Source of the DNA: a virus
Virus record (IMG/VR): IMGVR_UViG_3300037458_000572
Length of the DNA stretch: 61,734 nucleotides
Direction: 5' to 3' (one strand)
Under the pieces are notes generated by a model that saw nothing but the letters and a program-made list of their open reading frames with translations, ran no database searches and had not been told where the DNA came from. The position numbers and the translations under genes are program-made. This document shows, piece after piece, positions 27,830 through 54,048 of this stretch; position 1 is the first letter of the stretch; each line of letters begins with the position of its first letter.

Positions 27830-28930
27830 GTGGCCGTCATCATGCTTAAAGACGGCCGCTGGGTCGTCTACTATCGGGAGTTCCGCCCTGACGGCAAACC
27901 CTACCTCAAGCGCGAATACTTCGGCCGAGGTCCCCAGGCCGAGGCTTCTGCACGGGCAAAAGACAAAAGCTTGAACCTCGGCGCCCGCCGGCCGCAAACC
28001 GCAACGGCGGAAGGCCCCACCTTCGCCGAGATCGCCCGCGAATATTTCAACTCCCACCGCTTTGCATCTCCCGGTGCGCGTGACCAGCACCGCCTGCGCA
28101 TGGTCTCGCGCCTGCTGCCATTCTTCGGCCCGCTCGCCGCCACCCGCGTCGCCGACGCCGACCTCGACCGCTACATCGCCGCCCGCCGCCGCGACGTGAC
28201 CGATTCGACCATCCGCCGCGAACTCGTTGACCTCAAGGCAATCTTCAACTTCTCCGCCCGCCGGCGCCCGCCCCTCATCGCCTTCAATCCCGTGCGGGAC
28301 TACCGCATCCCGCGCGAAACCCTCGAAATCATCATGCCGCCGACAGACGCCGAATTTTCGGCGATCATGGATCACGCCCCCGAGCACCTCCGACGCATCC
28401 TGCTCTTATCTTACTACCTCGGGCTGCGCCCGGGGCCGGTCGAGTGCTACCGCCTGCGCTGGGAGAACTGCGATTTCGGCGCCAACACCATCCTGATCCA
28501 CGGCGCCAAGAAGGGCGGCCCGGTGAAGCGCCTCGTCCCGATCCACCCGGATCTCATGCCGCTCATGCGCCGGTGGCGGTCTCTCGACGCAGACCGCGGT
28601 ATCCCATGGGTCATCCATTGGGGCGGGAAAACCATAAACAAGATCGCCACCGCTTGGGCCAACGCGCTCGAAAACGCGGGCATCACACGCCGCCTGCGCC
28701 CCTACGACATGCGCCACCTGTTCGTAACCCGCGCGCTAGAGCGCGGGGCCGACATTAAACCCCTCGCCGAGATCGTCGGCTCTCGCCCCGAAACGCTCAT
28801 GCGGTTTTATCAGCACGTTTCCGCCGCAGCCCACCGCCACACCGTCGGCTTGATCCCACCGGCGCCTGGTAATAACGCCGCGCCCATTAAGTTATCACCA
28901 AAACGCAATATAAAACGCTGCAATATCTAA
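27830..28930 (+). CDS. int: tyrosine integrase
   Basis: 366 aa. Motifs: YYLGLRPGP (Arg), MRHLFVTR (H-x-x-R) and RFYQH (Tyr). It lies immediately downstream of the repressor gene. Confidence 0.9.
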   Translation: MAVIMLKDGRWVVYYREFRPDGKPYLKREYFGRGPQAEASARAKDKSLNLGARRPQTATAEGPTFAEIAREYFNSHRFASPGARDQHRLRMVSRLLPFFGPLAATRVADADLDRYIAARRRDVTDSTIRRELVDLKAIFNFSARRRPPLIAFNPVRDYRIPRETLEIIMPPTDAEFSAIMDHAPEHLRRILLLSYYLGLRPGPVECYRLRWENCDFGANTILIHGAKKGGPVKRLVPIHPDLMPLMRRWRSLDADRGIPWVIHWGGKTINKIATAWANALENAGITRRLRPYDMRHLFVTRALERGADIKPLAEIVGSRPETLMRFYQHVSAAAHRHTVGLIPPAPGNNAAPIKLSPKRNIKRCNI

Positions 28931-28946: not shown

Positions 28947-29032
28947 CACTCCCCTAACAGGGTTTTTCTTGATGCCTTAACCACAAGCCCTGAACATCAT
29001 TGCGGTGGAGATAAATTTGTATCACCGACACA

Positions 29033-29272: not shown

Positions 29273-29278
29273 TTAAAA

Positions 29279-29521: not shown

Positions 29522-29528
29522 GCCAAGA

Positions 29529-29786
29529 TCACCCTATCGTATTTTTTACCCCGGAGTGCGTCCCGGTCGCCGTCGCCGCCGCGACAACCGCCGCCACCCA
29601 CTGCGAAGAGTCGTTCCAGCCGTGTGTGAGCGCTAAATAGGACAACACTCCTAAAAACAGTATAACCAGCGGAATTAGCCGGTTGGGAAATCCCGGCAGC
29701 GCATTTTTAAGAATGCCTCCGACTACCATCAGCGCCGCAATCACGCCGCCGAACTCCGTTAGATTTATGTTTATCGACCCGTCCAT
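29529..29786 (-). CDS. holin-like small membrane protein
   Basis: 85 aa with two to three hydrophobic helices (GGVIAALMVVGGIL, LIPLVILFLGVLSYLAL, VAAVVAAATA), at the end of the late operon. Confidence 0.5.
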   Translation of the reverse strand: MDGSININLTEFGGVIAALMVVGGILKNALPGFPNRLIPLVILFLGVLSYLALTHGWNDSSQWVAAVVAAATATGTHSGVKNTIG

Positions 29787-30011
29787 TTATTTTACCTCCT
29801 TTTGTTTCTGGTGTTGCGCCGCGGCCCACGCCTGCGAATCGGGGTTGCCGCAGCGGTAGCTGTTGTCTTCGAGCCGCATCCACCACATGCAGCGCCGGGC
29901 GTGGCTCGCCATGCCAAACCCGCGGCAGGCGCTTTGCTGCCCGACCGCGAAAAACCTGCATTTGGTCAGCGTTTCGTAAACGCTGCAATACGCACCGTCA
30001 TCGTCCGTCAT
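29787..30011 (-). CDS. hypothetical Cys-rich protein
   Basis: 74-aa ORF that abuts the holin-like gene. Confidence 0.4.
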   Translation of the reverse strand: MTDDDGAYCSVYETLTKCRFFAVGQQSACRGFGMASHARRCMWWMRLEDNSYRCGNPDSQAWAAAQHQKQKEVK

Positions 30012-30396
30012 CGCACGTAATGGACGGGAGCATCCCCGCCGCGCGCTCTATTCTCGGAAGACTCAACTCCAGCCGTTGCAGGATAAGAGCTAGCTGGGTT
30101 GCCATACGGGTAACATCCGATGCCAGCGCCGTATTTTTTGTCAGCAGATCCCTAAACTTCTCGCGGCCGTCTTCCAGGTCTTGTATGATTTGCCGGTGCT
30201 GCAGCACGCACATCTCTTTGTCTATTTTGTCGTCATCGAGCTGGTCAAGACTTCTCTGCGTGGCTTCAACGGCGGCTTTAAGTTCAGCCCGCACAGATCT
30301 CAACTGGTCCAGCATGTATTTTATCGCTCCTCCAAAAACCCCCGTGCAACATATCCCCGTCACGATAGCCGCCACCACCTGATTTGTCTCACCCAT
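29998..30396 (-). CDS. N-terminal TM + coiled-coil protein (spanin-like architecture)
   Basis: 132 aa with TM helix VVAAIVTGICCTGVFGGAI followed by a long charged helical region. Confidence 0.5.
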   Translation of the reverse strand: MGETNQVVAAIVTGICCTGVFGGAIKYMLDQLRSVRAELKAAVEATQRSLDQLDDDKIDKEMCVLQHRQIIQDLEDGREKFRDLLTKNTALASDVTRMATQLALILQRLELSLPRIERAAGMLPSITCDDGR

Positions 30397-30473
30397 CCCT
30401 TGGTTGTCTCCTATTGTACCTCCCCCCCTGGTCTACGCTTTCCGCGCCTCCGACCGGCGCGGGCTCAACGCCC

Positions 30474-30653
30474 TCACCTCTCGCGCCGCCCTCCTTCATT
30501 CTTGCAGCGGCGCTTTCTTTTTTCCTGCGCGTAATCCCACATTCCGTAGCACTGCCCGGCGGCCTGCTCGCGGCTCTTGCCCTCCTCGATCACGCGCGGT
30601 ATGCACCGGTTGACGAAACGCTCCATCTTCTCCCCCTTGCGCGGCTTTGGCAT
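30474..30653 (-). CDS. small conserved phage protein (MPKP..GE...F..RC....EG...QA.G.CY..W motif)
   Basis: 59 aa, translated by hand and just under the ORF-track cutoff. A strong SD, GAAGGAGGAGG, precedes it. From memory, this motif is widespread in phage genomes with unknown function. Confidence 0.5.
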   Translation of the reverse strand: MPKPRKGEKMERFVNRCIPRVIEEGKSREQAAGQCYGMWDYAQEKRKRRCKNEGGRRER

Positions 30654-30679
30654 GCGCCTCCTCCTTCATTTTTTTTCTA

Positions 30680-30709
30680 CTTAAAACCTAACACCTAAAA
30701 CCTAACACC
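30680..30709 (-). repeat. 7-nt periodic UAR repeat block, site A
   Basis: The minus strand reads GGTGTTAGGTTTTAGGTGTTAGGTTTTAAG. It starts 5 nt after the stop of the giant ORF and ends 27 nt before the next start. Confidence 0.85.
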
Positions 30710-30713
30710 GCCT

Positions 30714-33700
30714 TTATCTCTTAAACGTCTCTTTGTACCACCGCGACGCCCGCTTAACCGTCTCGCGGTCTTCCTGTGAAAGTTCGTTTAAAAACTTCGT
30801 CCGATACTTATTTGGCAGCGCGGCCAGCGGATGCGCCCGGTCAACCGAAATCTTTAAGCCTTTCATGGTCCCGCCGAGGTCCTTATACTTATTGAGATAC
30901 CGCTCGGCCGCCTTGGCGTCCCCGTACTTGATCGCGGTCTTGTACCAGTAAAGCGCGTTGCTCCGGTCGGTCGGCTCATGGAACGGCCGCTCGATGTTAC
31001 GATCCTCCAGGAACCTGCCCACCATCTCGCGCGCGCCGTAGTAGGCCGTTTCTCCCGGGTTGGCCGAATAGCTGAAGGTCCGGAGCACGTCCTCCCACAC
31101 CTGCCCGGCCACTGTGCCCTCTTTCATCGGACGGCCGGCGGCGCGCCGGTAGAACCCTTCCAAAGACAGCATCCGCGCCACGTACTCGCCACGGTCGCGG
31201 ATCGGGCGGGGGCGGGCAAAGTCGGGGTAGATCGTTTTTCCTCCGATCAGCTCGCCGAACCCTTTGATGTCCGGCCGGATCCCCTGCAGCATTTTGTTTA
31301 CGGGCTCGCGGGCGGACTGCCCCAGCCACTGGTAAACCGTTTGCTTGCCATTAACGAGGTCCCGCATGTCCTCCGGGAAGTCGTGCAGGTTGAACCAGGA
31401 AAGCGCATCGGAAAGCGCCCCTTGCAGGCGCAGCGTCATGATGCTGCCGTCCGCTCTCCGCCCGAGGATCAGGTGCATCTGCCGGCGGCCCTCTTCGCCC
31501 AGCTCTTCTTCTTCGTCCGGGAAGACGAGCGCGTTCCACAACGCGATCGCCCCGTACAGCATGAATGCCTTGGCCCCCAGGAAAGCCGCCTTCTTGCCGG
31601 CCACGGCTCCAAGCAGCGCCACCCGCCGGCCGGCCGGCTCGCCCTCTATCGAAATGTTCCGCATCAGCCGCCAGTAGCGGGGGGCGTTGATTTCAGAGTT
31701 ACCCGTTATCATCACCTGGCCGTTCTGACGCATGACCCAAGTACCGTTTGCGGTCTTTGGACACCAGACGGTCCCGGTGTAATGCTCGCGGGTGTTTTCC
31801 CACTTGTTGAGCTGAATCTTGTCCCTTTTTTTTACATAAAGGCTATAGCATTTATCTTTACCTTCGCCGCAGTTCTTGGGTCTTATATGGCCAGCCTTGC
31901 CAAGCATGTAGCAAAGTATCTGGAAGGCATCGAGGACTGGTCCGGCATTCTGCGGGAAAGCGACAAGACTATTTACTGAAGTTCCTTCCGCCGCCAGCAT
32001 TGCATCGTACATGGCTTGGCACTCATTTAAACCAAGTCGAGTCACGATTCCGGGTAGGTCGTCTTTGGATTTAAAAACAGCACGGATCGCTTTCAGCTTC
32101 TCACTTTTTAATCGGAAGCAGATAACTCCGGTGCCGCGGTGAACCGCTTCCGTTGAAATATAATCGGAAAAGTCCCGCCTGATGTTTTCAACATCGGCTT
32201 CTTTCTTCTGATAAAGCATTGCCTCAAACGATTTTGGGGAGTGCTTACGCACTCTAAAATACCCGTCAGTTACAAGCCACCCCAACAAAGCCGCATCCGT
32301 TACGGAAAGCACGCTCTGTCCCACAAACTCATGGGGGGCTACTGTTGGAATATGCTGATGAGTCTTTAAGTCTTTCGCAAAAATAAATTTGCGTTGGTCT
32401 TTGTATTTCTCGATCACGACAACCCTGTGGTCTTCGGTAAATTGATATTTAAATCCCCATGCGTTTTGAATGGTAACAAGGTCTCCGTCGAACGGAAAAA
32501 CCGCTTTATCCTGGGCTGGTTGCCATTCGGTGGTGCGCTCCTTCATATTGTATGTCAGAACTTCCTCGCCTATCACAAGCTCGGTATGGTGTTTCCATCC
32601 ACGCCGGGTAAGTATCTCGGTATGATCAGGGACGCACCACGAGTAAAACGGGATCAGCTTCCGTCGCAGCCAGCGCCCACCCTTTGAAAGCCCGCCGTAG
32701 TCGCCGATCAACTCCCGCGCCAACAGTCCCGCCTTGCGGTCGATCTCGGTGTCGTCAATCGCGTTTACCTTATTAGGCAGGCTTGCCCCATAAACCCGCT
32801 CGCCGGCCGCGACCCGCTCCTTGAAATACCGGAAAGCCGCCAGTCGCAGCACATTCTCGCGGAATTGCGTAAAATTCTTGGAACCGTGCCAGAACCGCTG
32901 GATCAGGTCGATCGCCACGTTGTCCCTGGCGCCCATCGCGCGCTCCAACTGGCGGAAATCCGCCATCTTGCCGATGTCCGGGATGTCGTGCGCCGTGATC
33001 CCGCCGATTACCCCGTGTTTCAGCGCCGTCCTGAACTCTTCTTTAAGCTCCGGGGTCATGTTTTTGTTGTAGTGATAGGCCCATAGGTCTTTTATCGCCC
33101 GGCCCGCGTACCGCAAAATGCGCGGATCGTAGGCCAGCGTTATGTCCAGATCGCCCGAGGTGTTGTTCAAATTGTATTTTATGACGCGCAGCGGATTGAT
33201 CAGTATCCACCGCTTCCACATATTCATGGTCGCCTCGGCGGCCTGCGATACCACGTTGTCCTTCGGCGATCTCTGGAAGTCGGCGCCATCCATCACCTCG
33301 GCCAGCTCCGCCGGTATTACCCAGCGCACATCCGCCCCCCGCGCCAAAACCGGCCGCACGTCGCTGGCTTCAAGCTGCCGGTTGCCCGCGAGCACCTCGC
33401 CCAGGATCTGGTCGTTGATCGAGTTGGTCATGTACCAGGCCGTGCCCGGCCGCGGCACCCACTCGGCCCACCCGGTCGACCCCGCCCGCGGCGCACGTTC
33501 CTTCATTACATCGCGCCAGGTCTTGAGTCGGCGGCCGAGGGTCTCCTTTATTTCACGGTTGCGGTCGCCGATCGCTTTGAATATCATTCGCGCCTGGGCG
33601 GCACCTTCGCCGTCCGTGTTGGCAAGCCATCCCAAATACCTAAATAGGCTACCGTCGGGGTCGAACCCAACCGTATCGGACGCATCGCGCTCGGCGAGGG

Positions 33701-36700
33701 CCTCCACCACGTTTTCAAACGGGCCTGGATCTAATCTTCCGCGCTCGGCCAGCTTGGAAATTTGACCAAGCCCCATGGCAATTTTCTGGCGATAGGGAAG
33801 CAACGGGTCGTTCTGCGGCTGGCGCATATCTGCTGCCGTTATTTCCGGCATAAGTTGCCGCAGTTGGGCGGCCTTGACCTCATAATAGTTTGATAAATTG
33901 TCGCGTTTGGCTTTTGATTTAAGCTCGCTGAGGATATTCGCGTGCTCCCCGATCTCGTCCAGCACCTGCTTTCTCGCCAGCCGTTCGAAGCCCTGGGCCA
34001 GCACTTCGAACTCGGATTCGAGGTACTTGGTGTTGTAGTCCTTGATCGAGCCCGTGCGCGCGTACTGCCACCCTGCTTTCCGCACCCGCACCTCGCCGGC
34101 TTTCTGGTCGACGCCGGCGAACCGCTTGGCGTTCGCGTATTCAAGCACTTGATGATGGAAATACCGCTCGTCGTTCAACACCTGCTCGGGGAGCATCTTT
34201 TCTTTGACCAGCTGCTTGCGCAGGTCTCCGATTGCCTGCTGACGCCGCGCGATCGCCGCCGCCGCCGCCGGTTGTCGGGCGAGCGCGGCGTCTACCCTGG
34301 CAAGCGCATCGTCCACCTCGTCCTTGCTCTGGAACCCAAAAGCGATCTCGCCCTGGCTCGCTACCATGTCCTGCCAGTCCTCCAGCACCCCGCCCGGCTC
34401 CATGTCCTTCTGCATGTCGTCGAGCACCAGCTTTAGCCCAAACAGCTTGTAGTCCTCGGCCTTGAGGTTTTTCGGGTCCAGAATGTCCTTCAACTCCATG
34501 ATCGCCCGCGCTCGGCCGTAGTCGCCCGCCTCCATGAACTCGCGCAGCAGCACATTCTCGCGGCCAAAATACCTGTTCGGCATTTTCGGGAACATCCGCC
34601 CGGGCGTAAAAGTCGCCGCCGTCATCTTGGCTTTCTCGCGGATCACGGCAAGCAGCTTCGGCTTGCCGGCCCCTTGAGCGTCCCGGTAGCGGTCGGCAAC
34701 CCCCGCCGGCAGCACATCGTCCACGATGTCGTATTCTTGCCCTTGTGGGAGCGGCGTCCTCGCCGCGATTCCTTTCTCGCCTTCGAATAACTGGTTTTGC
34801 TCGATCCCCAGGCGCCCTTCGCCAGAACGCTCGTAAATCTTTCCGCTTTCGACCTTTCGCACCACGCCGCGCGCGGTAACTGAAAAAAGCGACACCACTG
34901 AGTCTATGATGTCACGCACCAGGTCCAGCATTCCGCGCAGCGTGCCGCGGTGCTCCTTGCGGTTCAGCAGCTCCCGCGCCAGCCAGTGGGCGCGGTCCTC
35001 CGGGCCGCCGATGTCCTGCTTGTTGACGGGCGTCCACTTGCCGTTATTCGCGTCGAACCTGATCTTGGAGCGCATGGCAAGGACTTCGTTTTTTGTAATT
35101 ATGCCGGAGTCTTCAAGCCAATGCTCGCCTTCGTGCGCTATGGTGTACTCGTTCGTTCCGGCATCCCTGACGAGCTTCATTTCGCCGCGGCCTGTAAGGT
35201 ACGACCCCCGCGCTGTCACTTTTACGTTGGGATCTGGCTTTCGCCCGTAATACATCTCGACCGCCGCGCTATCGGCGGAAATATGGTCCACCACATGCAC
35301 ATAGGCCGATCGCCCGCCCTGCGTCCTGATCCATATCCCTCCCGATTTTTCATCCCGCTCGACGCTCTGGCCGCGGTAGTGCTTCCGCAGCATCTCCAGC
35401 GGCACGTCCCGCAAATCGACGCGGCGGGCGGCCTGCGGCCGCAAATCATATTTTGTGGCTTCCGCCTTGACTTTCCCCAGCCACTGATTTAGCATCTTGT
35501 CAGAGCCGGATTCGGGGAAGTTAGACGCTGTCGAACTAAGGGCAGAAATGTCGTCCCCTTCTCCGGTTCTTGTTATTTGAATGTCGGATATAAAGACGTT
35601 GTGAAGCTCGTTCCGTGCGTCCTTGATTTCTCGCACCGTCAACCGCGCAAAATAGTTCTCGCCGTCTAATTCGATTCGGTTCAGGTAGTTGTGGTACTGA
35701 AGGACATTGGTGCGCAGATGGGGCTTTCGTTCAAGTTCCGGGTAGATCGGGACGGCGCTTTCCGTGATCGAATCCAGTTGAGGGACGGCGCGCAGAATTA
35801 CCTCACGATTTTTATGGCCGGCAATTTTGTCAAAGGTCTCCATCACGAACGATATTTTGCGGCCGTCGTGACGATTTACCACCGATTTTATCGCTCGGTA
35901 CGCTTGCTCTGCGGTCTCCTTTGAAATTGGGGGAGTTTCTATCCGTATCGGATCAGCCGCCATCACCCGCTGAAACTTCTCAAATTCGGAAGCCTCGCGC
36001 CCCGCCAGTGAATACAACTCACCCCCCCGATCGGTATCGCCGGCCAGAGCGGCTTCATTCGGTTTCGGCGGAGATTCCTTAATCGCATCCTGCACCGCGG
36101 CGCGGTATTCGTCTTCCAGCGGAATGTCGACGCCGGCGATCTTGCCGGCGGGTTTGGCCAGCTCGAAGTGCTGCTTTGCGACGGCGCGCAGGTCTTCAGG
36201 AACTTTTTCAGCGGCCGCAACCAGTTTCTTGAACTCGGATTCACCGGTTCGCTCAAGTTTTTCCTTGGCAGCTTCAATAACCTGTTTCCTTGTGCCGGCG
36301 CGGCTTTCGATAGCCAACCCGGTCGTTGCTTCAGAAACTGTCCAAGAAAATTCTTCGCCGGGTATATTGTGCGTGAATGTTTCAGCCCATGTGACTATTT
36401 TAGCGGGACGGGCATGCGGGACGGGCTTGAACCCTTGATTCGTGAAAATATAAAATTCAGCTTTTGGGGTAGGCGCTTCTTCAGCAGTTGCATCCGCGCC
36501 ACCCTCTATTCCGACTTCCGCCTTCGCACTTCCGCCTTCCTCATCTGCTTCCCGCTCGATGTTTGCGAAATTAAGCAGGTTCCTTATCGCGTTGCCTTCG
36601 TCGGCAACAGCACGGTTCACTAGGGACGGCAGCGCCTGCAGCTCGCGCTCGATCTCGGCCAGGCGCTGCTCGGTGGCGGCCAGTTCGTCGGTCTGCTTGA

Positions 36701-39700
36701 AGGGCGACTTGGATATTTTTTCGTACTCGGCAAGGTCGGCTTGCTCTTTTTTGATATGTTCTTTTAACTCGGCTGGGCGCTTGAAAATACCGTCGATGCT
36801 GTTCTCAAGCGAACTCATCAGCCCGCCGATCGTGTTGACCGATCGCTTAATCAGGAAGTCATCGCCTTTGCGGCCGAAACCTACTGCGATGTCGGGTGCG
36901 TCTCTTAGATTCCACTTTTCTTCTTTTTTATTGTTCCACGCATCCCAATCGACACCGTAATCAGGCCGGACACCGACCTGCACGCGCTGGCCGTGCGCCG
37001 TGAACTGAATATGCGCCGGAGTTACGTTGTTGACATACTCTTTCCATTCTTTCTTACCAATTAACTGCTTCGGGTGCTTGGCGTTCTCGGCCGCCACGAA
37101 TGCCGCCAGGGCTTCGTTGACATCCTTGCGCTCGGCCGGCTTGCCGTTCAGGGTGAACTCTTTGAGTTTGCCGCCGGGTACAGTCTTTTCGAGCTCGGCG
37201 GCGGTCTTTTCGGCGTCTTCTAACGTCTTTTCGGTTTCCTCGATCCGCGCCTGGGTCCTTTCGGTATTACGCCGGGCCATGGAGACTTCATGCTCCCAGC
37301 GCAGCTTCGCCCGCCGCAGCTTCTTGGCCTTCAACTCGACGTCGGTTTTTTCGAATACCAGCGGATTGCCGGAAAAAGCCGCCATCATTTCGGCGAGACT
37401 CGCCTGTTCTTCGGATAGCGGGTCGTCGAACTCGCGGCTCTCGATGTCTCCGACCAGCATCTGGTCGATGAACCGCTGCTTTTTGGTGAGCCGGTCGTAC
37501 ATCACCGAATCAAGCGTCGCGCGAACACCGTAGTTAAAGATCCGCACCTTGGGGTTGGTGTTTCCCTCGCGCACGATCCGTCCGTTCCTCTGCTCGATGT
37601 CCATCGGCCGCGGCGGAACGTCGACGTGGTGGGCCGCGATCAAAAGATCCTGCATGTTGACGCCGACCCCAAGCTTCTGAGAACTGCCGATGATCACCCG
37701 CACCGCTCCGGAGCGCACCCGGTCGAACAGCGCCTCGCGCGCGGAGTCTCCTTTCGCGTCCGTCACCAGCGCCACTTCGGATTTCGGGATGCCCTTGTCG
37801 ATCAGCTTCTGCCGCAGGTCTTCGTGCGAATTGAAAGTCTTGGTGCTGTCGTTCTGGCTGTCCAGGAAAACCACCTGCGTCGATCGGTTTCCGGAGGTTC
37901 CCTGCCAGATCTCATGGACCTTTTCGACCACCTTGTTGAGCTTGCTGTCCGGGTGGTCCTCGTAGGAGGCAGATACCAGGCGCATGTCGACCGCAGCCTT
38001 CTTGGCCAGTCCGAACAGCACTACAGGTACGTGGCGGCTTTCCCTCTTTTCCTTGCCGGTCAGATGGTCCCATGCTTCGCGCGCGGCTCTAAGCTCGTCG
38101 ATGAACCGGTTCAGGGAGGGCGTGCGTTCCACGGTCACGAACTCGGGCTTGCCGCCGGCCACGTCCGGAAGCCGCAGGCCGGCGTCCCGGGTAAGCTGCA
38201 CGTCGGCCGCCGTGCGCCACATGGTCAATAGCTCGGTCCCGTTCACGTACTTGTTGAACCGTTCGACCTCTCGATAGGTGCCGGTCTCGGTCTCTTCGAG
38301 GGCGGTCTGCGTCTGCCCGAACGTGGCCGCGAAATCGTCGAACAGGTCTACCCCGTAATCCTCCAGCAGGTCCGGGCGCACGTAGCGGATGATCGTCCAC
38401 AGCTCGGCCGTCGTGTTGCTGATCGGGGTCCCGGTCGCCAGGATTACGTTCTTCCCGCCGGTCTTCTCCTGCACGTAGCGGGACTTCATCAGCAGCGACG
38501 TCGACCGCTGGGAGGCCCCCTGGTCGATCCCTTTCACGCGCTGCATCTTGGTGAAGAATTCGCTGCGCTTATAAGCATGCGCCTCGTCCACCAGAAGGGC
38601 ATCGATCCCCATCTTCTCGAAGTTGAGCGCCTTGTCCTTGCGGCGGTTGAGCGCCTTCTCGATCCGGTCCTCTTTGCGCTTTTTCAACGCTTCCAGGTCT
38701 TTGACGGTGAAACTCTTCTTGCCCTCTTCCGCTTCCGCGTCAGTGATCGCCTCCTCGATCATTTTAATTTGTTCGCGGATGAACCCGATCTCGCGGTCCA
38801 CGTCGTCGGCGATCGCATCGAAAAAGCTGTGCGGCACCACCACGGCGTCCCAATCTCCGGTTGCGATCTGCGACAGCAGCCGCTGCCGGTAGCGCGCCGC
38901 GCGCTGCTTCTCGTCCGGGATCAGCACACGTGCGCCGGGGTACAGCTGGTTGAACGCCTTGCGGTACTGGCCGATCGTGCTGTTCTGCACCACGATCATG
39001 GGCTTCTTGGCGGTTCCCACCCGCCGCATCTCCATGGCGAGCGATATGAAGGAATAGGTCTTTCCGGTGCCGACCCCGTATGCGAAGATGGTCGACTCGC
39101 GCAGGCCTCGCGCCACGAACCGTTTTTGCAGCGGCCGCAGCTTGATGTGCGGATTGGCGCCCGGGAAGTGCTCGATCTTTGGCGTTTCGGTTTTGCGGAG
39201 GACGTGCCCGTTCTTTTCCTCGTTGTAGACCTCGGCGAGCTTGTCCTTCCACTTTTCGCTCGCGCGCGCCCAGCGCAGGAATTCCTCCTGGATTTCCTCC
39301 TGCTTGGCCTGGGCCGCTTCGGTCGCTTCGTCGTCGCGGGCGGTCCTTTTGCTACCGTTTTCGTCCTCGTAGGTGTAGGTGATGACCGGCCGCTTCATGT
39401 TCAAAGCGGACAACACAAGATCATCTCCACCGCGCCCGCCGGCGCCCCAGGTTTCGTTGTTCAAGGCTGTGGCGTAACCGTCCTCGACCGCCAGATGCCA
39501 GCTGCTTTGCTCTGAATTTTTGCTGTAGGTCGCTGTCGCCGTGACCCCCATGGTCTCTTTCAGGAAGTCGGATATCGCCTCGCCCGGTATCCAGGGGGTG
39601 CCCAGGCGGAAGTGGATGAACTCGATGTCGACCGGATCCGGCTGCACGGCGGAAAGCGCTTTCACGTTGCTGGCGTACTCCGGGTTGTCCTCTGCCGCGG

Positions 39701-42344
39701 CCTCGGCCGCTTTGAGCTTCTTCTTGACGTTGCCGGATAGATAAAGGTCCGGTGCCTCTAAAAGACCGGTCTCCGGGTTGATGAAGGCCATGCCTTTTTC
39801 GACCAGCTCGGCTTTTACCTCCTCCTCGCTCCGCGCCGTCAGCTTGGCGATATATCCGGTGTCCAGCCCGGCCCGGTAGACCTCGGAGAGGGTCGCCGCC
39901 TCCTCGATGCTGCCGGCCGTCTCCGGCTCGACGAACGGGTAAATCGTGCGCTTGGTAAAAACGTCGGCCTTGGTGAAAGTCTTTACCCGGCGGTTTACCG
40001 GCTGGCCCTTGTTCGGCCCGCTCTTGACCGTATCGGCCACGATGGAGACCTCTTCGTTCTCCAGCGCGTCCACGATCGGAAATTCAAGGTCGATCCGTTT
40101 CAGGAACGAGTTGCCCGGTTCGCCCACGTTGCCGTACTTCTTAACGAAGTCGTCATAGGCCCGGTTCAGCTCGGCGCGCAGGGCGTCCAGCTCGGCATCG
40201 GTCGCATCGGTCGTATTGCTGCGATCGATCAGCCGCTTGTGGATGTCTTTGATTTTAAGGTACTGCCGAGCGCGGGCCTTGCGGGCGGGGGAGGATAACG
40301 CCAGGGACTCCTTGCCCTTGTCGTTGATCAGTGTCGGGGCAACGAGCTTGCCCTCCGAAACCATGTAAACTTCGCCGTCGCGCTCGACCAGGGCGCCGTC
40401 GATGTCCTTCATCGTGGCGTACTTGACTTCGGTCTCAACCGCGGCCGCCGCGTTGCCCTCGCTCATGATGTTTTCGGGGAGGGCCTCGATCGCCCGGGCG
40501 ATCTGAGCGTTCAGGTCCGCGCCGGTCGGCTCCACCGTGTACTCGTCCGCCCCGCGCATGCTGCCGGTCATGGCGTGCTTGCCCATCACCATTTCGGGGT
40601 GTTTGACGAAATACTCGTTGATGAAGGCCGGCGGCTTGCCAGGCGCCACCTCCACCTGCTCGGCAACCCGAAAATCCTGGTTGAGCCCGTAGCTCGTCGC
40701 GTCTTTTTTTCTGAAAACCAGTATATCAGTCACGACCTCGGTGCCGGCGTTCTTTTTAAACGCCGTGTACGGCAGCCGGATCCCGCCCACGAAGTCGGCC
40801 TTCTTGGCGAGCGCCGCGCGGGTCTCGCCGTTCGTCACGGCGTCCATGGTGAAATGGCTCGTGATCGCCACCACCAGACCACCCGGCCGCACGGCGTCGA
40901 TCGACCGGCCGAAAAAATAGTTGTGGATGCTCCATTTGCCGTACTGCGGTCGCTTGGGGTCGAACACGGAGAACTTGCCGAAGGGGAAATTCGAAATCAC
41001 CAGGTCTTGGCTGTTGTCGGGGATCCCGCGCGCCTTCTCGAAGCCCATCACCTGCACGCGCGCCTGTGGGTATAACTTGGTCAGGATCTGGCCGGTGATG
41101 GAGTCAAGCTCGACCGCGTTGATCCGGCTGGCGCCGGCCAGGTCCTGGGGCATCAAGCCGATGAAATGCCCGGCGCCGGCGGCGGGCTCGGTCACGGCGC
41201 CGCCCTTGAACCCCAGCCGGCGGACGAGCGACCACATGCGGTCTATAACGTCCCGGTCGGTGTAGTGGGCGTTTAGCGTGCTGGCCTTGGCCGCTTCCCA
41301 TTCCTCCTCGGTCAGCGCGCCGCCCAGCTTCGGGTGCAGCTTGCGGCCGTACTTGCGCTCCCAATTCTGGTACTTTTCGAGGGTGCTGCCGTAGAGGATG
41401 CGGTCGGCGGCCATGCCGCGATCGATGATGCGGTCCAGCGCCTTGGTGTACTCGTCGTTGAAGATTTTCTGCGCGAAGGCGCCCCAGCCCGTATATTGGG
41501 CCAGCACCTTCTTTTCTTCGGGGGATGGGTTGCGGTTTTCTGCGGTGAGGCGCTTGACAAGCTCGATGGCCCGGATGTTGGCCTTGATCTTGCCTTCGTC
41601 GCCGGGCGGTACGATCTCGTCGCCCGGCTCGATGACGTGGTTGCGGTTCTCTGGGGCTAACTCAGCAGACCGCTTAGAATCTTCTCGCGCTCTTCGTCCG
41701 GCAGCGGCTTCGGGGGATTCGAGGATAGCGCCGGTCCGTCCGCCGGCGCCACGATCCGGCCGAACACCTTTTCCTCGGCCAGGTCGCGGGCCTCCCCCTT
41801 CAGTCTCAGCCGCTGCAGCTCCAGGCTCGCCAGTTGCAGGTTGCTCACCAGCTCCGCCTTCAGCTTGCCCGGGCTCTCCCGGAACAGCTTCGCCACGCGC
41901 TGGGGCTGGTTGTCCAGCAGCCAAACCAGCCGTGCCTCGAACATCGGGTCGCTCTCCGGGTTCTCGATCTGCAGGCTCGACGGTTCGAGCCCGTCCAGTT
42001 CCTTCAGGCTCAACGCTCTCATCTTCCACCTCCTGGGTGGGGGCCTGTGCCTCACCTTCAATTATAGTCTGTTTTGGTGCGTTTTCAAGTGTTTTTTCTG
42101 CCTCTTGTGGGAGCGGCGTCCCCGCCGCGATTTTTTCATCAACCTCGCCGCCTGCCTCTTTCACTTGCCGGAGGATGTCCGCCCGTTCCTCTTCCAACTC
42201 CCTGATATAGTCCTTGACCGCGTTCACGGCTGCGGCGTGCGCCTCGTACCCGTCACGCTGGTAGTCCGCCGCCATGGCCCGCAGGATGGTCTCTTCGTGC
42301 TTTCCGGCCCCGATCCGCTTCAAGCATACCGATAGGCTGCTCAT
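30714..42344 (-). CDS. giant polyvalent protein (N6-adenine MTase + SNF2/DEAD-type helicase + HExxH zincin + intein-bearing C-terminal domain), DarB-like
   Basis: Uninterrupted 3,876-codon ORF whose start forms an ATGA overlap with the upstream gene. The domain motifs are listed as separate features. Confidence 0.85.
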   Translation of the reverse strand: MSSLSVCLKRIGAGKHEETILRAMAADYQRDGYEAHAAAVNAVKDYIRELEEERADILRQVKEAGGEVDEKIAAGTPLPQEAEKTLENAPKQTIIEGEAQAPTQEVEDESVEPEGTGRARTVEPADREPGERPDVRGTAGLAAGQPAPARGEAVPGEPGQAEGGAGEQPATGEPGAAAAETEGGGPRPGRGKGVRPDRGAGGRTGAILESPEAAAGRRAREDSKRSAELAPENRNHVIEPGDEIVPPGDEGKIKANIRAIELVKRLTAENRNPSPEEKKVLAQYTGWGAFAQKIFNDEYTKALDRIIDRGMAADRILYGSTLEKYQNWERKYGRKLHPKLGGALTEEEWEAAKASTLNAHYTDRDVIDRMWSLVRRLGFKGGAVTEPAAGAGHFIGLMPQDLAGASRINAVELDSITGQILTKLYPQARVQVMGFEKARGIPDNSQDLVISNFPFGKFSVFDPKRPQYGKWSIHNYFFGRSIDAVRPGGLVVAITSHFTMDAVTNGETRAALAKKADFVGGIRLPYTAFKKNAGTEVVTDILVFRKKDATSYGLNQDFRVAEQVEVAPGKPPAFINEYFVKHPEMVMGKHAMTGSMRGADEYTVEPTGADLNAQIARAIEALPENIMSEGNAAAAVETEVKYATMKDIDGALVERDGEVYMVSEGKLVAPTLINDKGKESLALSSPARKARARQYLKIKDIHKRLIDRSNTTDATDAELDALRAELNRAYDDFVKKYGNVGEPGNSFLKRIDLEFPIVDALENEEVSIVADTVKSGPNKGQPVNRRVKTFTKADVFTKRTIYPFVEPETAGSIEEAATLSEVYRAGLDTGYIAKLTARSEEEVKAELVEKGMAFINPETGLLEAPDLYLSGNVKKKLKAAEAAAEDNPEYASNVKALSAVQPDPVDIEFIHFRLGTPWIPGEAISDFLKETMGVTATATYSKNSEQSSWHLAVEDGYATALNNETWGAGGRGGDDLVLSALNMKRPVITYTYEDENGSKRTARDDEATEAAQAKQEEIQEEFLRWARASEKWKDKLAEVYNEEKNGHVLRKTETPKIEHFPGANPHIKLRPLQKRFVARGLRESTIFAYGVGTGKTYSFISLAMEMRRVGTAKKPMIVVQNSTIGQYRKAFNQLYPGARVLIPDEKQRAARYRQRLLSQIATGDWDAVVVPHSFFDAIADDVDREIGFIREQIKMIEEAITDAEAEEGKKSFTVKDLEALKKRKEDRIEKALNRRKDKALNFEKMGIDALLVDEAHAYKRSEFFTKMQRVKGIDQGASQRSTSLLMKSRYVQEKTGGKNVILATGTPISNTTAELWTIIRYVRPDLLEDYGVDLFDDFAATFGQTQTALEETETGTYREVERFNKYVNGTELLTMWRTAADVQLTRDAGLRLPDVAGGKPEFVTVERTPSLNRFIDELRAAREAWDHLTGKEKRESRHVPVVLFGLAKKAAVDMRLVSASYEDHPDSKLNKVVEKVHEIWQGTSGNRSTQVVFLDSQNDSTKTFNSHEDLRQKLIDKGIPKSEVALVTDAKGDSAREALFDRVRSGAVRVIIGSSQKLGVGVNMQDLLIAAHHVDVPPRPMDIEQRNGRIVREGNTNPKVRIFNYGVRATLDSVMYDRLTKKQRFIDQMLVGDIESREFDDPLSEEQASLAEMMAAFSGNPLVFEKTDVELKAKKLRRAKLRWEHEVSMARRNTERTQARIEETEKTLEDAEKTAAELEKTVPGGKLKEFTLNGKPAERKDVNEALAAFVAAENAKHPKQLIGKKEWKEYVNNVTPAHIQFTAHGQRVQVGVRPDYGVDWDAWNNKKEEKWNLRDAPDIAVGFGRKGDDFLIKRSVNTIGGLMSSLENSIDGIFKRPAELKEHIKKEQADLAEYEKISKSPFKQTDELAATEQRLAEIERELQALPSLVNRAVADEGNAIRNLLNFANIEREADEEGGSAKAEVGIEGGADATAEEAPTPKAEFYIFTNQGFKPVPHARPAKIVTWAETFTHNIPGEEFSWTVSEATTGLAIESRAGTRKQVIEAAKEKLERTGESEFKKLVAAAEKVPEDLRAVAKQHFELAKPAGKIAGVDIPLEDEYRAAVQDAIKESPPKPNEAALAGDTDRGGELYSLAGREASEFEKFQRVMAADPIRIETPPISKETAEQAYRAIKSVVNRHDGRKISFVMETFDKIAGHKNREVILRAVPQLDSITESAVPIYPELERKPHLRTNVLQYHNYLNRIELDGENYFARLTVREIKDARNELHNVFISDIQITRTGEGDDISALSSTASNFPESGSDKMLNQWLGKVKAEATKYDLRPQAARRVDLRDVPLEMLRKHYRGQSVERDEKSGGIWIRTQGGRSAYVHVVDHISADSAAVEMYYGRKPDPNVKVTARGSYLTGRGEMKLVRDAGTNEYTIAHEGEHWLEDSGIITKNEVLAMRSKIRFDANNGKWTPVNKQDIGGPEDRAHWLARELLNRKEHRGTLRGMLDLVRDIIDSVVSLFSVTARGVVRKVESGKIYERSGEGRLGIEQNQLFEGEKGIAARTPLPQGQEYDIVDDVLPAGVADRYRDAQGAGKPKLLAVIREKAKMTAATFTPGRMFPKMPNRYFGRENVLLREFMEAGDYGRARAIMELKDILDPKNLKAEDYKLFGLKLVLDDMQKDMEPGGVLEDWQDMVASQGEIAFGFQSKDEVDDALARVDAALARQPAAAAAIARRQQAIGDLRKQLVKEKMLPEQVLNDERYFHHQVLEYANAKRFAGVDQKAGEVRVRKAGWQYARTGSIKDYNTKYLESEFEVLAQGFERLARKQVLDEIGEHANILSELKSKAKRDNLSNYYEVKAAQLRQLMPEITAADMRQPQNDPLLPYRQKIAMGLGQISKLAERGRLDPGPFENVVEALAERDASDTVGFDPDGSLFRYLGWLANTDGEGAAQARMIFKAIGDRNREIKETLGRRLKTWRDVMKERAPRAGSTGWAEWVPRPGTAWYMTNSINDQILGEVLAGNRQLEASDVRPVLARGADVRWVIPAELAEVMDGADFQRSPKDNVVSQAAEATMNMWKRWILINPLRVIKYNLNNTSGDLDITLAYDPRILRYAGRAIKDLWAYHYNKNMTPELKEEFRTALKHGVIGGITAHDIPDIGKMADFRQLERAMGARDNVAIDLIQRFWHGSKNFTQFRENVLRLAAFRYFKERVAAGERVYGASLPNKVNAIDDTEIDRKAGLLARELIGDYGGLSKGGRWLRRKLIPFYSWCVPDHTEILTRRGWKHHTELVIGEEVLTYNMKERTTEWQPAQDKAVFPFDGDLVTIQNAWGFKYQFTEDHRVVVIEKYKDQRKFIFAKDLKTHQHIPTVAPHEFVGQSVLSVTDAALLGWLVTDGYFRVRKHSPKSFEAMLYQKKEADVENIRRDFSDYISTEAVHRGTGVICFRLKSEKLKAIRAVFKSKDDLPGIVTRLGLNECQAMYDAMLAAEGTSVNSLVAFPQNAGPVLDAFQILCYMLGKAGHIRPKNCGEGKDKCYSLYVKKRDKIQLNKWENTREHYTGTVWCPKTANGTWVMRQNGQVMITGNSEINAPRYWRLMRNISIEGEPAGRRVALLGAVAGKKAAFLGAKAFMLYGAIALWNALVFPDEEEELGEEGRRQMHLILGRRADGSIMTLRLQGALSDALSWFNLHDFPEDMRDLVNGKQTVYQWLGQSAREPVNKMLQGIRPDIKGFGELIGGKTIYPDFARPRPIRDRGEYVARMLSLEGFYRRAAGRPMKEGTVAGQVWEDVLRTFSYSANPGETAYYGAREMVGRFLEDRNIERPFHEPTDRSNALYWYKTAIKYGDAKAAERYLNKYKDLGGTMKGLKISVDRAHPLAALPNKYRTKFLNELSQEDRETVKRASRWYKETFKR
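31698..32636 (-). mobile_element. intein with LAGLIDADG homing endonuclease, in frame within the giant ORF
   Basis: 313 aa. It starts with Cys (FYSW/CVPDHTEIL). Block B is TEDH. LAGLIDADG-like motifs are LLGWLVTDGYF and MYDAMLAAEGT. It ends VMITGN/SEIN, with +1 Ser. The region is visibly lower in GC than its flanks. Confidence 0.85.
34745..34770 (-). repeat. 25-nt GC hairpin motif, copy 2 (in frame, encodes IAARTPLPQ)
   Basis: The plus strand reads gtgggagcggcgtcctcgccgcgatt, inside the giant ORF. Confidence 0.85.
35121..35135 (-). other. HExxH (HEGEH) zincin-type metallopeptidase motif within the giant ORF
   Basis: TIAHEGEHWLED read in the translation. The fold has not been verified. Confidence 0.5.
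37540..39140 (-). other. SNF2/DEAD-like helicase core within the giant ORF (approximate bounds)
   Basis: Walker A GTGKT (39056-39070), DEAH (38577-38588), ATGTPISN, and motif VI QRNGRIVREGN (37560-37592). Confidence 0.85.
40690..41290 (-). other. N6-adenine DNA methyltransferase domain within the giant ORF (approximate bounds)
   Basis: Motif I VTEPAAGAGHFIG (41156-41195) and motif IV-like ISNFPFGK (40973-40993). An upstream QYTGWGA segment is typical of MTase-helicase fusions. Confidence 0.8.
41657..42022 (-). CDS. nested out-of-frame gene inside the N-terminal linker of the giant ORF
   Basis: 121 aa (MRALSLKELDGLEPSS...EKILSGLLS). The SD AGGAGGTGG ends 5 nt upstream of the ATG. Third codon positions are strongly G/C in this frame, but A/T-rich in the giant-ORF frame over the same span. 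Confidence 0.6.
   Translation of the reverse strand: MRALSLKELDGLEPSSLQIENPESDPMFEARLVWLLDNQPQRVAKLFRESPGKLKAELVSNLQLASLELQRLRLKGEARDLAEEKVFGRIVAPADGPALSSNPPKPLPDEEREKILSGLLS
42061..42088 (-). promoter_or_regulatory. sigma70-like promoter upstream of the nested gene
   Basis: Minus strand: TTGAAA (42088-42083), 16-nt spacer, TATAAT (42066-42061). It sits about 35-40 nt upstream of the nested-gene ATG and inside the giant-ORF coding sequence. Confidence 0.55.
42107..42132 (-). repeat. 25-nt GC hairpin motif, copy 3 (in frame, encodes IAAGTPLPQ)
   Basis: The plus strand reads gtgggagcggcgtccccgccgcgatt, immediately upstream of the internal promoter. Confidence 0.85.
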
Positions 42345-42565
42345 CTCTCTCCTTCGATTACCGCCACGAACAGCGGAATCAGATCAACTATCTCTTCATC
42401 TTCATCCGCCGCGAGCCACACCTTGCGGTCGACCGGCTCGTAATCGTAATCCCAATAACCTCCGCCGCCGACCCTGGCGGGATATTCGACTTCAACGAGC
42501 GCCGTCATCGGCGGAAAATACGCCGGGGCGAAGTAGGCCCCGGCGAAGTAGTTGCGCGCGAACAT
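42341..42565 (-). CDS. small YF-repeat protein
   Basis: 74 aa counted from the internal ATG (MFARNYFAGAYFAPAYFPP). Start/stop overlaps couple it to both neighbouring genes. Confidence 0.5.
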   Translation of the reverse strand: MFARNYFAGAYFAPAYFPPMTALVEVEYPARVGGGGYWDYDYEPVDRKVWLAADEDEEIVDLIPLFVAVIEGER

Positions 42566-43161: not shown

Positions 43162-43169
43162 GTCTCCCC

Positions 43170-44819: not shown

Positions 44820-44832
44820 TTTGGTTCCCCTC

Positions 44833-47499: not shown

Positions 47500-47856
47500 T
47501 TAAGCCTTTGCCACTACTTTTTTGATTCTGCCGTCCGCGTCCCGCTCGATCGTGAAGTCCCACCGCCGCGCGCGTTCGGGAACTGGAGGCGGCTGAACCG
47601 CCTTGATGGCCGTGGCGATCCCTTTGCCGATCCGCTCGATCGCCGCCGCGGTTTCGCTCCGGGTCTCGGCGATCACTCCGGCCAGGGTCTCCTGGGTTGC
47701 TGCCAGCTTGCCGAGCACCCGGACCGTGGCCTTATGCGTCTCGGCGTGCTCGTCGGGGCTCTCCTTTTCAATGCGGCGGCTTTCGTCAGGGAGGTGCTTG
47801 GCCTTGCCAGACACCCGCATCAAATTCGCATCCTTGTCGCTCAGATATTTAGGCAT
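47500..47856 (-). CDS. hypothetical protein
   Basis: 118-aa ORF overlapping the upstream gene's end by 16 nt. Confidence 0.5.
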   Translation of the reverse strand: MPKYLSDKDANLMRVSGKAKHLPDESRRIEKESPDEHAETHKATVRVLGKLAATQETLAGVIAETRSETAAAIERIGKGIATAIKAVQPPPVPERARRWDFTIERDADGRIKKVVAKA

Positions 47857-50800: not shown

Positions 50801-51014
50801 ACACCCCACGGGAGGGCGGCGGCGGCCGGTGCGGCTCAAGGTTTATCTCGATGAAATCGTTTTTTACGGATGAAAGTTCGTTTTCGGGAAGGTCGGAAAA
50901 CTTGGCGGACAGCTTGTCGTCGAAATACCCGCCAAGCGCCCGCTGCTTGTCGATCGTTGAAAGTGCCTTGAAATCAGGATCGGCGAACCACTGCTGCACA
51001 ACCTTGTTCAACAT
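47841..51014 (-). CDS. large internal-virion/ejection-like protein with tandem repeat modules
   Basis: 1,057 aa. Repeated modules are AVEALTGRRAP.R.PS, VKEPWEMTRREY and PVP..VLAEYPDLV. There are two copies of EEEIAAGTPLPQ. Any function is inferred from size and position only. Confidence 0.75.
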   Translation of the reverse strand: MLNKVVQQWFADPDFKALSTIDKQRALGGYFDDKLSAKFSDLPENELSSVKNDFIEINLEPHRPPPPSRGVLTDLGVSVARGIVGAPETYARALAALDKAVGVDDGKSREIAEDISSFRDDALPVSKEASSPGWRRDWTGAAESTVQSLAVTAPSMAAGVAGAAARGGGKLAAAAAGQLPGAPLFGMAQYDKAYDEYVKKGVPKDQAHDAAVMEGLSETGSEFFSDVLDILLLRGGGFTKPLREATKNSAKRVIQSSYSAAAKKGLGIAASEEAGELANTAIQAEVQRSTGASEDTFWQAIKDNFGQITVSSLIFGALGGGLHKARSNQVRSLITDKDADPEERLGAVREVYDEIARTDPGLADRWRTGATMAVLQGKSISEEIDEDHGFGVQGSGDAAPVGAAGEDTTAAATSPAEKPKRKKTAAEIFTGRVAPSRQPSVAPEEEIAAGTPLPQDEARPAISAVEALTGRRAPMRQPSQAPVEIEQQPPTGATPAAIAAEDVQGGALPPAAEAPGSPVKEPWEMTRREYAETSTVNRGNNYLSVRSPDGSSFVIRTIDTAKYTDADAITVSHKDYIKKALKNGNPVPSKVLAEYPDLVDKPPTNAVEALTGRRAPMRQPSQAPIEQAPTATSEAVQDEIVTEGVQGGTFPSAAEAAGLPVKEPWEMTRREYVESVSAGNVIDDRANQRHKNIVALAIGEGKPVPPTVLAEYPDLVEKPATNAVEALTGRRAPSRRPSEESAALEPRGEAIAGQPVREGGVNDKGAAGEPPRAAFEVLTGRVAPNRRPSVPQVEEEIAAGTPLPQEKPKTDVAATITGKQPPRSKAKDMADWAGKMISRGAARIAGVDYSVQQAGTGSFYYRRTENGIRSEKGPGYPAKWTRKQALIEAAKEARQDFERGQREQEKAEPVEGAAAYQVVEAGEAEGEPKAEGLESQAPAPKDLKFKYGDMVTPTAAGGLNVGFAGRVIDDYFEDGREYVKIEGKGENGLPADSFELQPQPAPAQEKQAPPLSEIMVEIKAYSESGAAMMIKERADTALAENSEQTAMARKILECLNI
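48603..48627 (-). repeat. 25-nt GC hairpin motif, copy 4 (in frame, IAAGTPLPQ)
   Basis: The plus strand reads gtgggagcggcgtccccgccgcgat. Confidence 0.85.
49652..49676 (-). repeat. 25-nt GC hairpin motif, copy 5 (in frame, IAAGTPLPQ)
   Basis: The plus strand reads gcgggagcggcgtccccgccgcgat. Confidence 0.85.
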
Positions 51015-52668: not shown

Positions 52669-52683
52669 GTCCGCTGTCCTCCG

Positions 52684-53328: not shown

Positions 53329-53343
53329 ACCGCGCCCCTCCGC

Positions 53344-54045: not shown

Positions 54046-54048
54046 TTT

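Follow-up and report, generated by a model that had tools for sequence, protein, structure and literature searches.

The DarB protein of phage P1 (2,255 amino acids, aa) is packaged in the capsid and defends against type I restriction. To our knowledge, nobody has established how giant DarB-like proteins are packed, ejected or processed, and these proteins cost a podophage a fifth of its genome. DarB-like giants that occupy about 22% of a podophage genome have already been described (PMC9144972, PMC10269572, PMC5512222). Those of JC1 (gp69) and Bcep22 (gp75), each taking 22% of the genome, were detected in virions by mass spectrometry (PMC9144972), and orf43 of CSP3 was described in the same virion-associated terms (PMC10269572). 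Iyer et al. assigned the 'methylase-helicase dyad' of polyvalent proteins to the EcoKI/TaqI-like N6-adenine methyltransferase (MTase) family (PMC5512222). In the virion RNA polymerase (vRNAP) of coliphage N4, the C-terminal region that follows an HExxH domain is required for encapsidation (PMC5512222), and phi24B gp47, a polyvalent giant of 2,811 aa, is abundant in virions and was proposed to be an ejection protein or trans-periplasmic conduit. The present analysis concerns a giant gene (30714..42344, minus strand) on a stretch of viral DNA of 61,734 nucleotides (nt), IMG/VR record IMGVR_UViG_3300037458_000572, which is referred to below as the window. Its product is quite probably one polypeptide of the phage 'polyvalent protein' class, a DarB-like giant of a closed 61.6-kb temperate phage genome with the virion-gene order of Bcep22/LASTA-type podophages. 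The DarB-like assignment in itself is not new. The new element is a large, uncurated family of putative C-terminal carrier modules, which is distinct in sequence from PLxRFG and holds a candidate homing intein in its invariant motif.

The open reading frame (ORF) listing of the window gives the gene 3,876 codons plus stop (11,631 nt) and an ATG start, with the sequence GAAGGAG just upstream as a good ribosome-binding site. The translation contains a single stop, which is located at the end, and the second-longest ORF of the window encodes 1,057 aa. The chance of 3,876 codons without a stop, computed from the base composition, is about 1e-65. Window bases 1-127 are repeated exactly at 61608-61734, and this terminal identity, an overlap of the type left by assemblers, indicates that the genome in the window is closed (circular or circularly permuted) and 61,607 bp long. 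The gene accounts for 18.8% of the window and 18.9% of the non-redundant genome. An uninterrupted minus-strand ORF with a genome share of about 19% had been reported in the original prediction, which was made from the letters of the window alone, and both statements were verified; all motifs quoted there are also present in the translation (Table 1). Collinear single ORFs were identified in independent assemblies, namely P0005 (3,077 aa, 56-68% identical), the giant of IMG/VR contig L096 (4,130 aa, 58-80% identical) and P0010 (5,267 aa), which argues against a frameshift or assembly artefact. A nested gene had been proposed as well and could not be substantiated. Ten antisense ORFs of at least 150 aa lie inside the gene and none of them has a Pfam hit; the LAGLIDADG endonuclease is encoded in frame within the intein described below. 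The largest antisense ORF (30978..31979) cannot be conserved because part of it lies in intein DNA, which the closest relative (L096) lacks. Comparison of the gene with 50,697 phage records by megablast yielded a single match of 55 nt, so that no close cultured relative is found there.

The N-terminal half of the protein is dominated by the MTase-helicase core. Residues 62-1928 matched PHROG 10089 ('DarB-like antirestriction') with 1,489 bits, and BLASTP against P1 DarB aligned the MTase (aa 356-549, E 6e-24, 30% identity) as well as the helicase lobes (aa 882-1346, E 5e-12, and aa 1551-1722, E 1e-11). By tblastn, identities of 33-36% over about 1,500 aa were obtained to the giants of Agrobacterium phage Atu_ph08, Vibrio phage VvAW1, Pseudomonas phages 8P and Itty13, Erwinia phage PEp14, Klebsiella phage LASTA, Sinorhizobium phage PBC5, Burkholderia phage CSP3 and others. 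BLASTP alignments with four known giants were confined to aa 143-1904. A profile of the MTase region matched EcoKI HsdM (1.4e-9), StySJI M (6.5e-9) and M.TaqI (1e-6) in the PDB, and motif I (EPAAGAGHF) and motif IV (NFPF) can be recognized. The possibility that NFPF in place of NPPF inactivates the enzyme was considered and rejected: P1 DarB has NVPF and most relatives N[VP]PF, and NFPF is normal for the clade because P1 DarB and most relatives likewise have a residue other than proline at this position. The helicase scored 33.6 bits with Pfam SNF2-rel_dom (cut-off 24.9), also matched ResIII and Helicase_C, found ISWI and SNF2h in the PDB, and has intact motifs I (GTGKT), II (DEAH) and VI (QRNGRIxR). 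About 95 aa ahead of MTase motif I, a GWGA motif is located within ...LAQYTGWGAFAQ..., in a helical block for which no Pfam model match was obtained; the published definition of LPD36 is a GxG[GAS]/GxGU helical domain N-terminal to an MTase (PMC5512222). Judged by these matches, the core (aa 62-1928) is DarB-like. The MTase and SNF2-type helicase folds of the original prediction are thus supported by profile and structure searches, and the suggested kinship to P1 DarB and polyvalent proteins holds, given the matches to P1 DarB and to the podophage 'DarB-like antirestriction' giants and the presence of LPD3. The assembled domain order comprises a leader, a disordered linker, a putative LPD36 region, the MTase-superfamily 2 (SF2) helicase unit, a coiled coil, LPD3, an HExxH domain and a helical C-terminal module (C-module) of about 1,030 aa.

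Outside of the core, curated families provide little guidance. Searches of Pfam, NCBIfam and PHROGs with the whole protein and with 300-700-aa tiles gave no match for aa 1-240, 1931-2141 and 2244-3876, except for weak Hint/Intein hits, and PDB sequence searches with the whole protein, the intein and aa 1905-2531 returned SNF2 helicases as the only matches. The C-module, which comprises aa 2532-3876 minus the intein, has no Pfam, PHROG or NCBIfam match. When the C-terminal half and the family member P0003 were compared by tblastn with 50,697 deposited phage genomes, only intein matches were obtained. A word-indexed search of 5.8 billion proteins identified just four relatives of the C-module, and a profile search of 1.84 billion cluster representatives returned 2,474 matches at E<=1e-3 (1,829 at E<=1e-30), which sets the family size at a minimum of 2,474 clusters. 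The proteins that carry the module span 580-6,639 aa, with hundreds of members of 3,000-6,600 aa, and among 155 sequences examined the module ends at a median of 10 aa from the protein C-terminus and nearly always forms the very end of the protein. The parts N-terminal to the module vary and include ART-PolyVal, PBECR3, SLT or RadC domains in some members; the DarB dyad is found in 24-29 of the same 155 proteins (about one in six). Members originate from IMG/VR contigs of about 60-65 kb, from metagenome-assembled genomes of Desulfobacterota, Nitrospirota, Gemmatimonadota and Geobacter, and from a few Firmicutes; the occurrences in the first four of these groups are read as prophages. One further example is P0004 (L005 5565-10277), a 1,570-aa family member on a 23-kb phage-like contig, in which the C-module stands behind a different N-terminal part with a ParB-like DGNNR motif and no DarB dyad.

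Structure modelling of the spliced C-module by AlphaFold2 produced an all-helical model (predicted local distance difference test, pLDDT, 69.7; predicted template modelling score 0.58). In BFVD, this model matched 39 entries at E<1e-3, nearly all of which are the last segments of giant phage proteins that bear the label 'Large polyvalent protein associated domain-containing', among them the giants of Cellulophaga phage phi19:3 and Escherichia phage PTXU04. Foldseek against the PDB gave a best E of 1.1, and the ABC-transporter-like helical bundles found there were rejected as noise. The segment near the C-terminus that had been described as transmembrane (TM)-like does not stand out, since its 19-residue Kyte-Doolittle maximum of 1.43 is no higher than that of other helices of the protein. 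Among 63 scored family members the median for this helix is 1.25, and 13% reach 1.6. The relationship to the PLxRFG tail of known giants was also addressed. NF032893 was not matched anywhere in the whole giant at E<=0.1 or in P0003, P0002 and P0009 at E<=10, and a regular-expression search found no PLxRFG motif in the C-terminal half of the giant or in P0001-P0004; PLSRFG is present in 8P and PLARFG in LASTA. Comparison of a 156-sequence C-module profile with a 58-sequence PLxRFG profile by hhalign gave three weak collinear local matches (E 0.027, 0.14 and 0.48; probability <2%). Homology of the C-module and the PLxRFG tail is not claimed, as the hhalign probability stayed below 2% with shallow and with deeper profiles; a very remote relationship of the two sequences is possible. 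By analogy, we read the C-module as the constant 'carrier' end of the polyvalent protein, which would be the functional counterpart of the PLxRFG 'tail-700' domain and of the N4 vRNAP region needed for encapsidation. With some reserve, we lean towards the view that the module is a second 'carrier' domain of phage polyvalent virion proteins, acting in the role of tail-700 and maybe a very distant relative of it, and that the intein marks its invariant motif as essential.

The intein suspected in the C-terminal domain was confirmed and its borders could be placed exactly. It shows C3237 as first residue, a TEDH block, the LAGLIDADG motifs LLGWLVTDGYF and AMLAAEG, and a terminal ...ITGN3549 followed by S3550. 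The element is inserted into the most conserved motif of the C-module, PFYSW-x-EINAPRY. In the intein-free relatives P0001-P0004, the sequence PF[YFW]SW[MQ]EINAPRY runs uninterrupted across the site, and the L096 DNA, which is 78-79% identical on both flanks, lacks exactly 939 nt at this position; these empty-site homologues prove the intein boundaries. Related elements were found by tblastn (26-27% identity over about 320 aa, E 1e-16 to 1e-19) as inteins in a mycobacteriophage methylase gene, a Gordonia phage portal gene and a KIL-phage DNA polymerase gene. The Pfam models Intein_splicing and Hint reached E values of only 0.015-0.02, and a search of the intein against PDB sequences gave no match. 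Closer copies reside in the same motif of P0072, P0079, P0087, L081, L086, L087 and L092, in two insertion registers that are 2 codons apart (PFY^SW.EINAPRY and PFYSW^xEINAPRY). These copies are 62-78% identical to the intein of the giant and their host C-modules just 35-40%, a difference that is a signature of horizontal homing. Splicing and homing activity are assumed from these sequence features. A literature search yielded no description of inteins in polyvalent, DarB or ejection proteins, and the same holds for 'PLxRFG'; the survey of polyvalent proteins by Iyer et al. does not mention inteins (0 occurrences; PMC5512222).

Between the core and the C-module, LPD3 and a conserved HExxH domain were identified. 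With an MTase, a helicase, LPD3 and an HExxH domain in one polypeptide that is encoded among virion genes, the giant has the composition by which polyvalent proteins are recognized. LPD3 is missing from the close relatives: P0005 lacks aa ~2079-2295 and the L096 giant lacks aa 1935-2297, which corresponds to LPD3 and its flanks. As the LPD3-containing block (aa ~2079-2295, 35460-36110) is absent from both, it probably represents a recent module insertion. The HExxH domain was detected by jackhmmer in about 18 members of the C-module family, mostly directly N-terminal of the C-module. Across 13 homologues, H2404 and H2408 do not vary, nor does a Glu that follows the second His by 41 residues; E2405 is almost invariant. 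In the AlphaFold2 model of the domain (core pLDDT 80-97, mean 60.5), five strands are followed by helix 116-130 with the HExxH and by helix 165-181 with the Glu. An HExxH helix and a later Glu helix behind a small sheet is the zincin layout given by Iyer et al. (PMC5512222). No Pfam peptidase match was obtained at E<=1 for the domain in 13 members, and Foldseek of the model against the PDB gave a best E of 0.58 and no zincin, which is a weak negative at a mean pLDDT of 60.5. Of the zincin-type domain proposed for HEGEH, the conservation of HExxH and Glu therefore stands and the fold has no Pfam or PDB match, so that 'zincin-type' is a call at the level of the sequence motif.

Shuffling of modules is also visible at the N-terminus. 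The L096 giant possesses about 1,000 additional N-terminal residues, the homologue of which is a separate gene in the window; it encodes the 1,057-aa protein and is located three genes upstream (Table 1). Such mosaicism was described for polyvalent proteins by Iyer et al. (PMC5512222). The short leader of the giant (MSSLSVCLKR...ILRQVKE) is also found at the start of P0079 and P0042, two proteins whose only other match to the giant is the C-module. The leader may be a second constant element, such as a packaging or processing signal.

The genomic surroundings resemble those of known DarB-like giants. Terminase, portal-like, tail-fibre-like and internal-virion-protein genes are all encoded on the minus strand, and the giant gene closes this virion module. 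In UAM5, CSP3 and LASTA, the giant is preceded by an 'internal virion / virion-associated protein', of which the 643-aa virion protein is a homologue. In 8P, CSP3, UAM5 and LASTA, giants of 4,387-5,145 aa occupy the same slot, with holin, lysozyme and integrase genes downstream in 8P, CSP3 and UAM5. In the window, genes for small membrane proteins (spanin-like and holin-like ORFs) and a tyrosine integrase are found on that side, and the integrase indicates that the phage is temperate. A position suited to a virion-delivered effector, as originally suggested, is thus borne out by the gene order. Virion delivery of the giant is a reasonable inference by analogy, because it has the same gene slot, the upstream virion protein is shared and homologues were detected in virions. 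No endolysin was recognizable near the spanin- and holin-like ORFs (29000-30700 of the window). A small basic ORF (30474..30653) is also located downstream of the giant. PHROG matches at E<=1e-3 were also missing for the other large minus-strand ORFs between the internal virion protein homologue and the giant (42565-47496 and 51055-54690), those of 198, 549, 887, 537, 214, 233 and 213 aa among them. Cultured phages have virion modules that are very distant from that of this phage.

Table 1. Features of the giant protein and of neighbouring genes, with residue numbers of the giant and nucleotide positions of the window
Feature	Residues (aa)	Position (nt)	Strand	Evidence
N-terminal leader	1-65	42150..42344	-	36-40% identical to aa 1-63 of P0079 and aa 1-81 of P0042
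Low-complexity Gly/Ala/Pro/Glu/Arg-rich linker	66-240	41625..42149	-	translation; phmmer found no homologues
LPD36-like helical region before MTase, GWGA (GxGU) motif	241-345	41310..41624	-	block matched by 20 family members
N6-adenine DNA methyltransferase, EcoKI/TaqI type	346-660	40365..41309	-	profile vs PDB, P1 DarB BLASTP, phrog_11801
VTEPAAGAGHFIG (MTase motif I)	384-396			translation
ISNFPFGK	450-457			translation
Inter-domain region of DarB-like core	661-1060	39165..40364	-	phrog_10089; alignments to 8P and LASTA giants
SNF2-like SF2 helicase/translocase	1061-1720	37185..39164	-	Pfam, PDB and P1 DarB matches
GVGTGKTYS	1090-1098			translation
LLVDEAHAYK	1250-1259			translation
QRNGRIVREGN	1585-1595			translation
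Coiled-coil region, end of DarB-like core	1721-1930	36555..37184	-	phrog_10089 to aa 1928; weak coiled-coil-type Pfam hits
Block without domain match	1931-2141	35922..36554	-	common only to P0005; no Pfam or PDB hit
LPD3 (large polyvalent protein-associated domain 3)	2142-2243	35616..35921	-	Pfam PF18798, E 7.5e-17, 62 bits (cut-off 27)
Conserved HExxH domain	2298-2531	34752..35453	-	jackhmmer, alignment, AlphaFold2
HEGEH	2404-2408			translation
C-module, N-extein part, ends ...RRKLIPFYSW	2532-3236	32637..34751	-	profile, model, family alignments
Intein, 313 aa	3237-3549	31698..32636	-	Cys1, TEDH block B, two LAGLIDADG motifs, terminal Asn, Ser +1
C-module, C-extein part, starts SEINAPRY	3550-3876	30717..31697	-	profile, model, family alignments; hydrophobic helix then PDEEEELGE
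Hydrophobic segment	3575-3608	31521-31622		translation
Tyrosine integrase		27830..28930	+	phrog_1, E 4.8e-48
Holin-like ORF, two hydrophobic segments		29529..29786	-	translation
Spanin-like ORF		29998..30396	-	phrog_739 Rz-like spanin, E 5.8e-4
1,057-aa protein, no PHROG hit		47841..51014	-	tblastn 41.5% identity, E 5e-131, to N-terminal ~730 aa of L096 giant (L096 437-2539)
Virion gene, 643 aa		54982..56913	-	phrog_511 E 3.5e-100; 28-30% identity over full length (tblastn)

In the favoured explanation, the giant would be produced late in infection, and the intein would splice itself out and restore the invariant PFYSW-x-EINAPRY motif. The C-module, perhaps together with the leader, would act as the constant carrier by which the protein enters the capsid and later leaves through the tail along with the DNA. 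In the new host, the methylase-helicase unit would travel on or modify the incoming DNA and protect it against restriction, in the way that DarB guards P1 against type I systems. Provided that the HExxH domain is a peptidase, it might cut the polyprotein into working pieces. Several points weigh against this scheme. The packaging of P1 DarB needs partners of the DarA/Hdf type, which were not looked for here, and a virion location is extrapolated from giants that end in a PLxRFG domain (NF032893), which is not detectably the same as the C-module. Like all proteins with a C-module, the giant is known from sequence alone; the model of the module is of medium confidence only and has no PDB relative, and the HExxH domain lacks Pfam and PDB fold support. 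Moreover, the penultimate residue of the intein is Gly instead of the usual His (Gly-Asn end), and for this reason its splicing competence is an assumption.

Three other explanations were weighed against the same data. The giant could mainly be a structural ejection (pilot) protein that provides a short-tailed phage with a channel across the envelope, in which case the enzymes would be accessory cargo and the C-module would be the channel- or core-forming part. The conduit proposed for the virion-abundant phi24B gp47 offers a precedent, and the C-module would suit such a role: it is long and all-helical, has a conserved hydrophobic helix followed by an acidic patch and is the only part common to all 2,474 family representatives, and an internal virion protein homologue is encoded by a neighbouring gene. 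Nevertheless, neither solved ejection proteins nor any other PDB entries proved similar in fold, and the hydrophobic helix stays below the usual TM thresholds in the giant and in 87% of the 63 family members. We regard this explanation as rather unlikely; it can, moreover, coexist with an anti-restriction role. Considerably less probable is a protein that is not packaged at all, either a cytoplasmic enzyme that acts on replicating phage DNA by methylation or remodelling, or a prophage-borne helicase-methylase of the DISARM/BREX type. The temperate nature of the phage would be compatible with it, and weak NCBIfam hits to DISARM DrmD and a PLD anti-phage protein fall in the helicase C-lobe. These hits reach 44-56 bits at cut-offs of 610-1100, and the assignment as a DISARM/PLD defence protein was rejected as its scores are far under the cut-offs. 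The gene is also co-oriented with the virion module and closes it, as where the homologue was found in virions, and both LPD3 and the fold matches speak for a polyvalent virion protein.

The least credible alternative is an artefact, in which an assembly error or a frameshift would have joined separate genes into the single 11.6-kb ORF. The genome appears to be a metagenomic assembly, as judged from its 127-bp terminal overlap, and the N-terminal module of the L096 giant, being a separate gene here, demonstrates that fission and fusion occur in the family. These points are outweighed by the collinear ORFs of P0005, the L096 giant and P0010, by the negligible chance of such a stop-free length and by the hundreds of family members of similarly giant size.

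For the study of polyvalent proteins, the assignment of the giant as a DarB-like protein with a candidate carrier module has several consequences. It separates constant parts (the extreme C-terminal module, the adjacent HExxH domain and the short N-terminal leader) from swappable cargo, namely the DarB dyad and LPD3. The constant C-terminal family is missing from Pfam, PHROGs and NCBIfam and, at BLAST sensitivity, from deposited phage genomes, and it provides a concrete target for work on the capsid loading of polyvalent effectors as well as a handle to search for such effectors in metagenomes. The intein pinpoints the residues that are most likely essential and predicts a spliced junction peptide in virions. 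If the C-module is indeed a carrier, this would be the first capsid-packaged polyvalent protein with an intein.

A comparison with described systems places the giant among them. P1 DarB shares the order of an EcoKI/TaqI-type N6-adenine MTase followed by an SF2 helicase and the residue other than Pro at position 2 of motif IV (NVPF and NFPF). It differs as it consists essentially of the dyad alone, belongs to a myovirus, depends on DarA/Hdf/DdrA for packaging and is only 21-30% identical. The giant, in contrast, continues for about 1,950 aa beyond the dyad (LPD3, HExxH domain, C-module and intein) and also has the N-terminal leader. In the giants of Bcep22/JC1/CSP3 (Lessievirus), UAM5 (Gervaisevirus), LASTA/SopranoGao (Lastavirus), PEp14 and 8P, the DarB-like core is 31-36% identical over 1,200-1,860 aa, their gene is the last of the virion module, before lysis genes and integrase, and it takes 19-22% of a genome of about 60 kb; they are also annotated as 'PLxRFG domain-containing protein'. 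Unlike the giant in the window, these proteins end in the NF032893 'tail-700' PLxRFG domain (about 680 aa; 677 bits in LASTA, 768 bits in 8P) and have about 1,300-1,800 aa before the core, including an SLT lytic transglycosylase in CSP3, and none of the four compared has an intein at the equivalent site. A lytic transglycosylase domain, present in the CSP3 and Bcep22 giants, is absent here. The original prediction had found no described protein with this exact combination of parts; DarB-like giants as such were already known, and the C-module family and its intein had not been described.

Phage LAGLIDADG inteins have in common with the present one Cys1, TxxH, a terminal Asn, the +1 nucleophile, two LAGLIDADG motifs and insertion into the most conserved motif of the host protein. 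The differences are the host, which here is a polyvalent virion protein, the Gly in place of the penultimate His and the two registers among related copies. With the polyvalent proteins of Iyer et al. (PMC5512222) the giant shares several unrelated modules, the MTase-helicase dyad (here behind a putative LPD36 region), LPD3, an HExxH module, the late-gene context and rapid shuffling; the difference is the C-module of about 1,030 aa, which is not among the Pfam LPD/PolyVal models. N4 vRNAP and phi24B gp47 carry other cargo (an RNA polymerase or LPD1/5/38, and not the DarB dyad). N4 vRNAP was matched neither in sequence nor in fold, and the analogy is one of position alone. Both are nevertheless very large proteins that are housed in a podophage capsid and ejected, with HExxH directly before a large C-terminal region, and the pairing seen in N4 vRNAP matches that of the HExxH domain and the C-module in the giant and in many members of its family.

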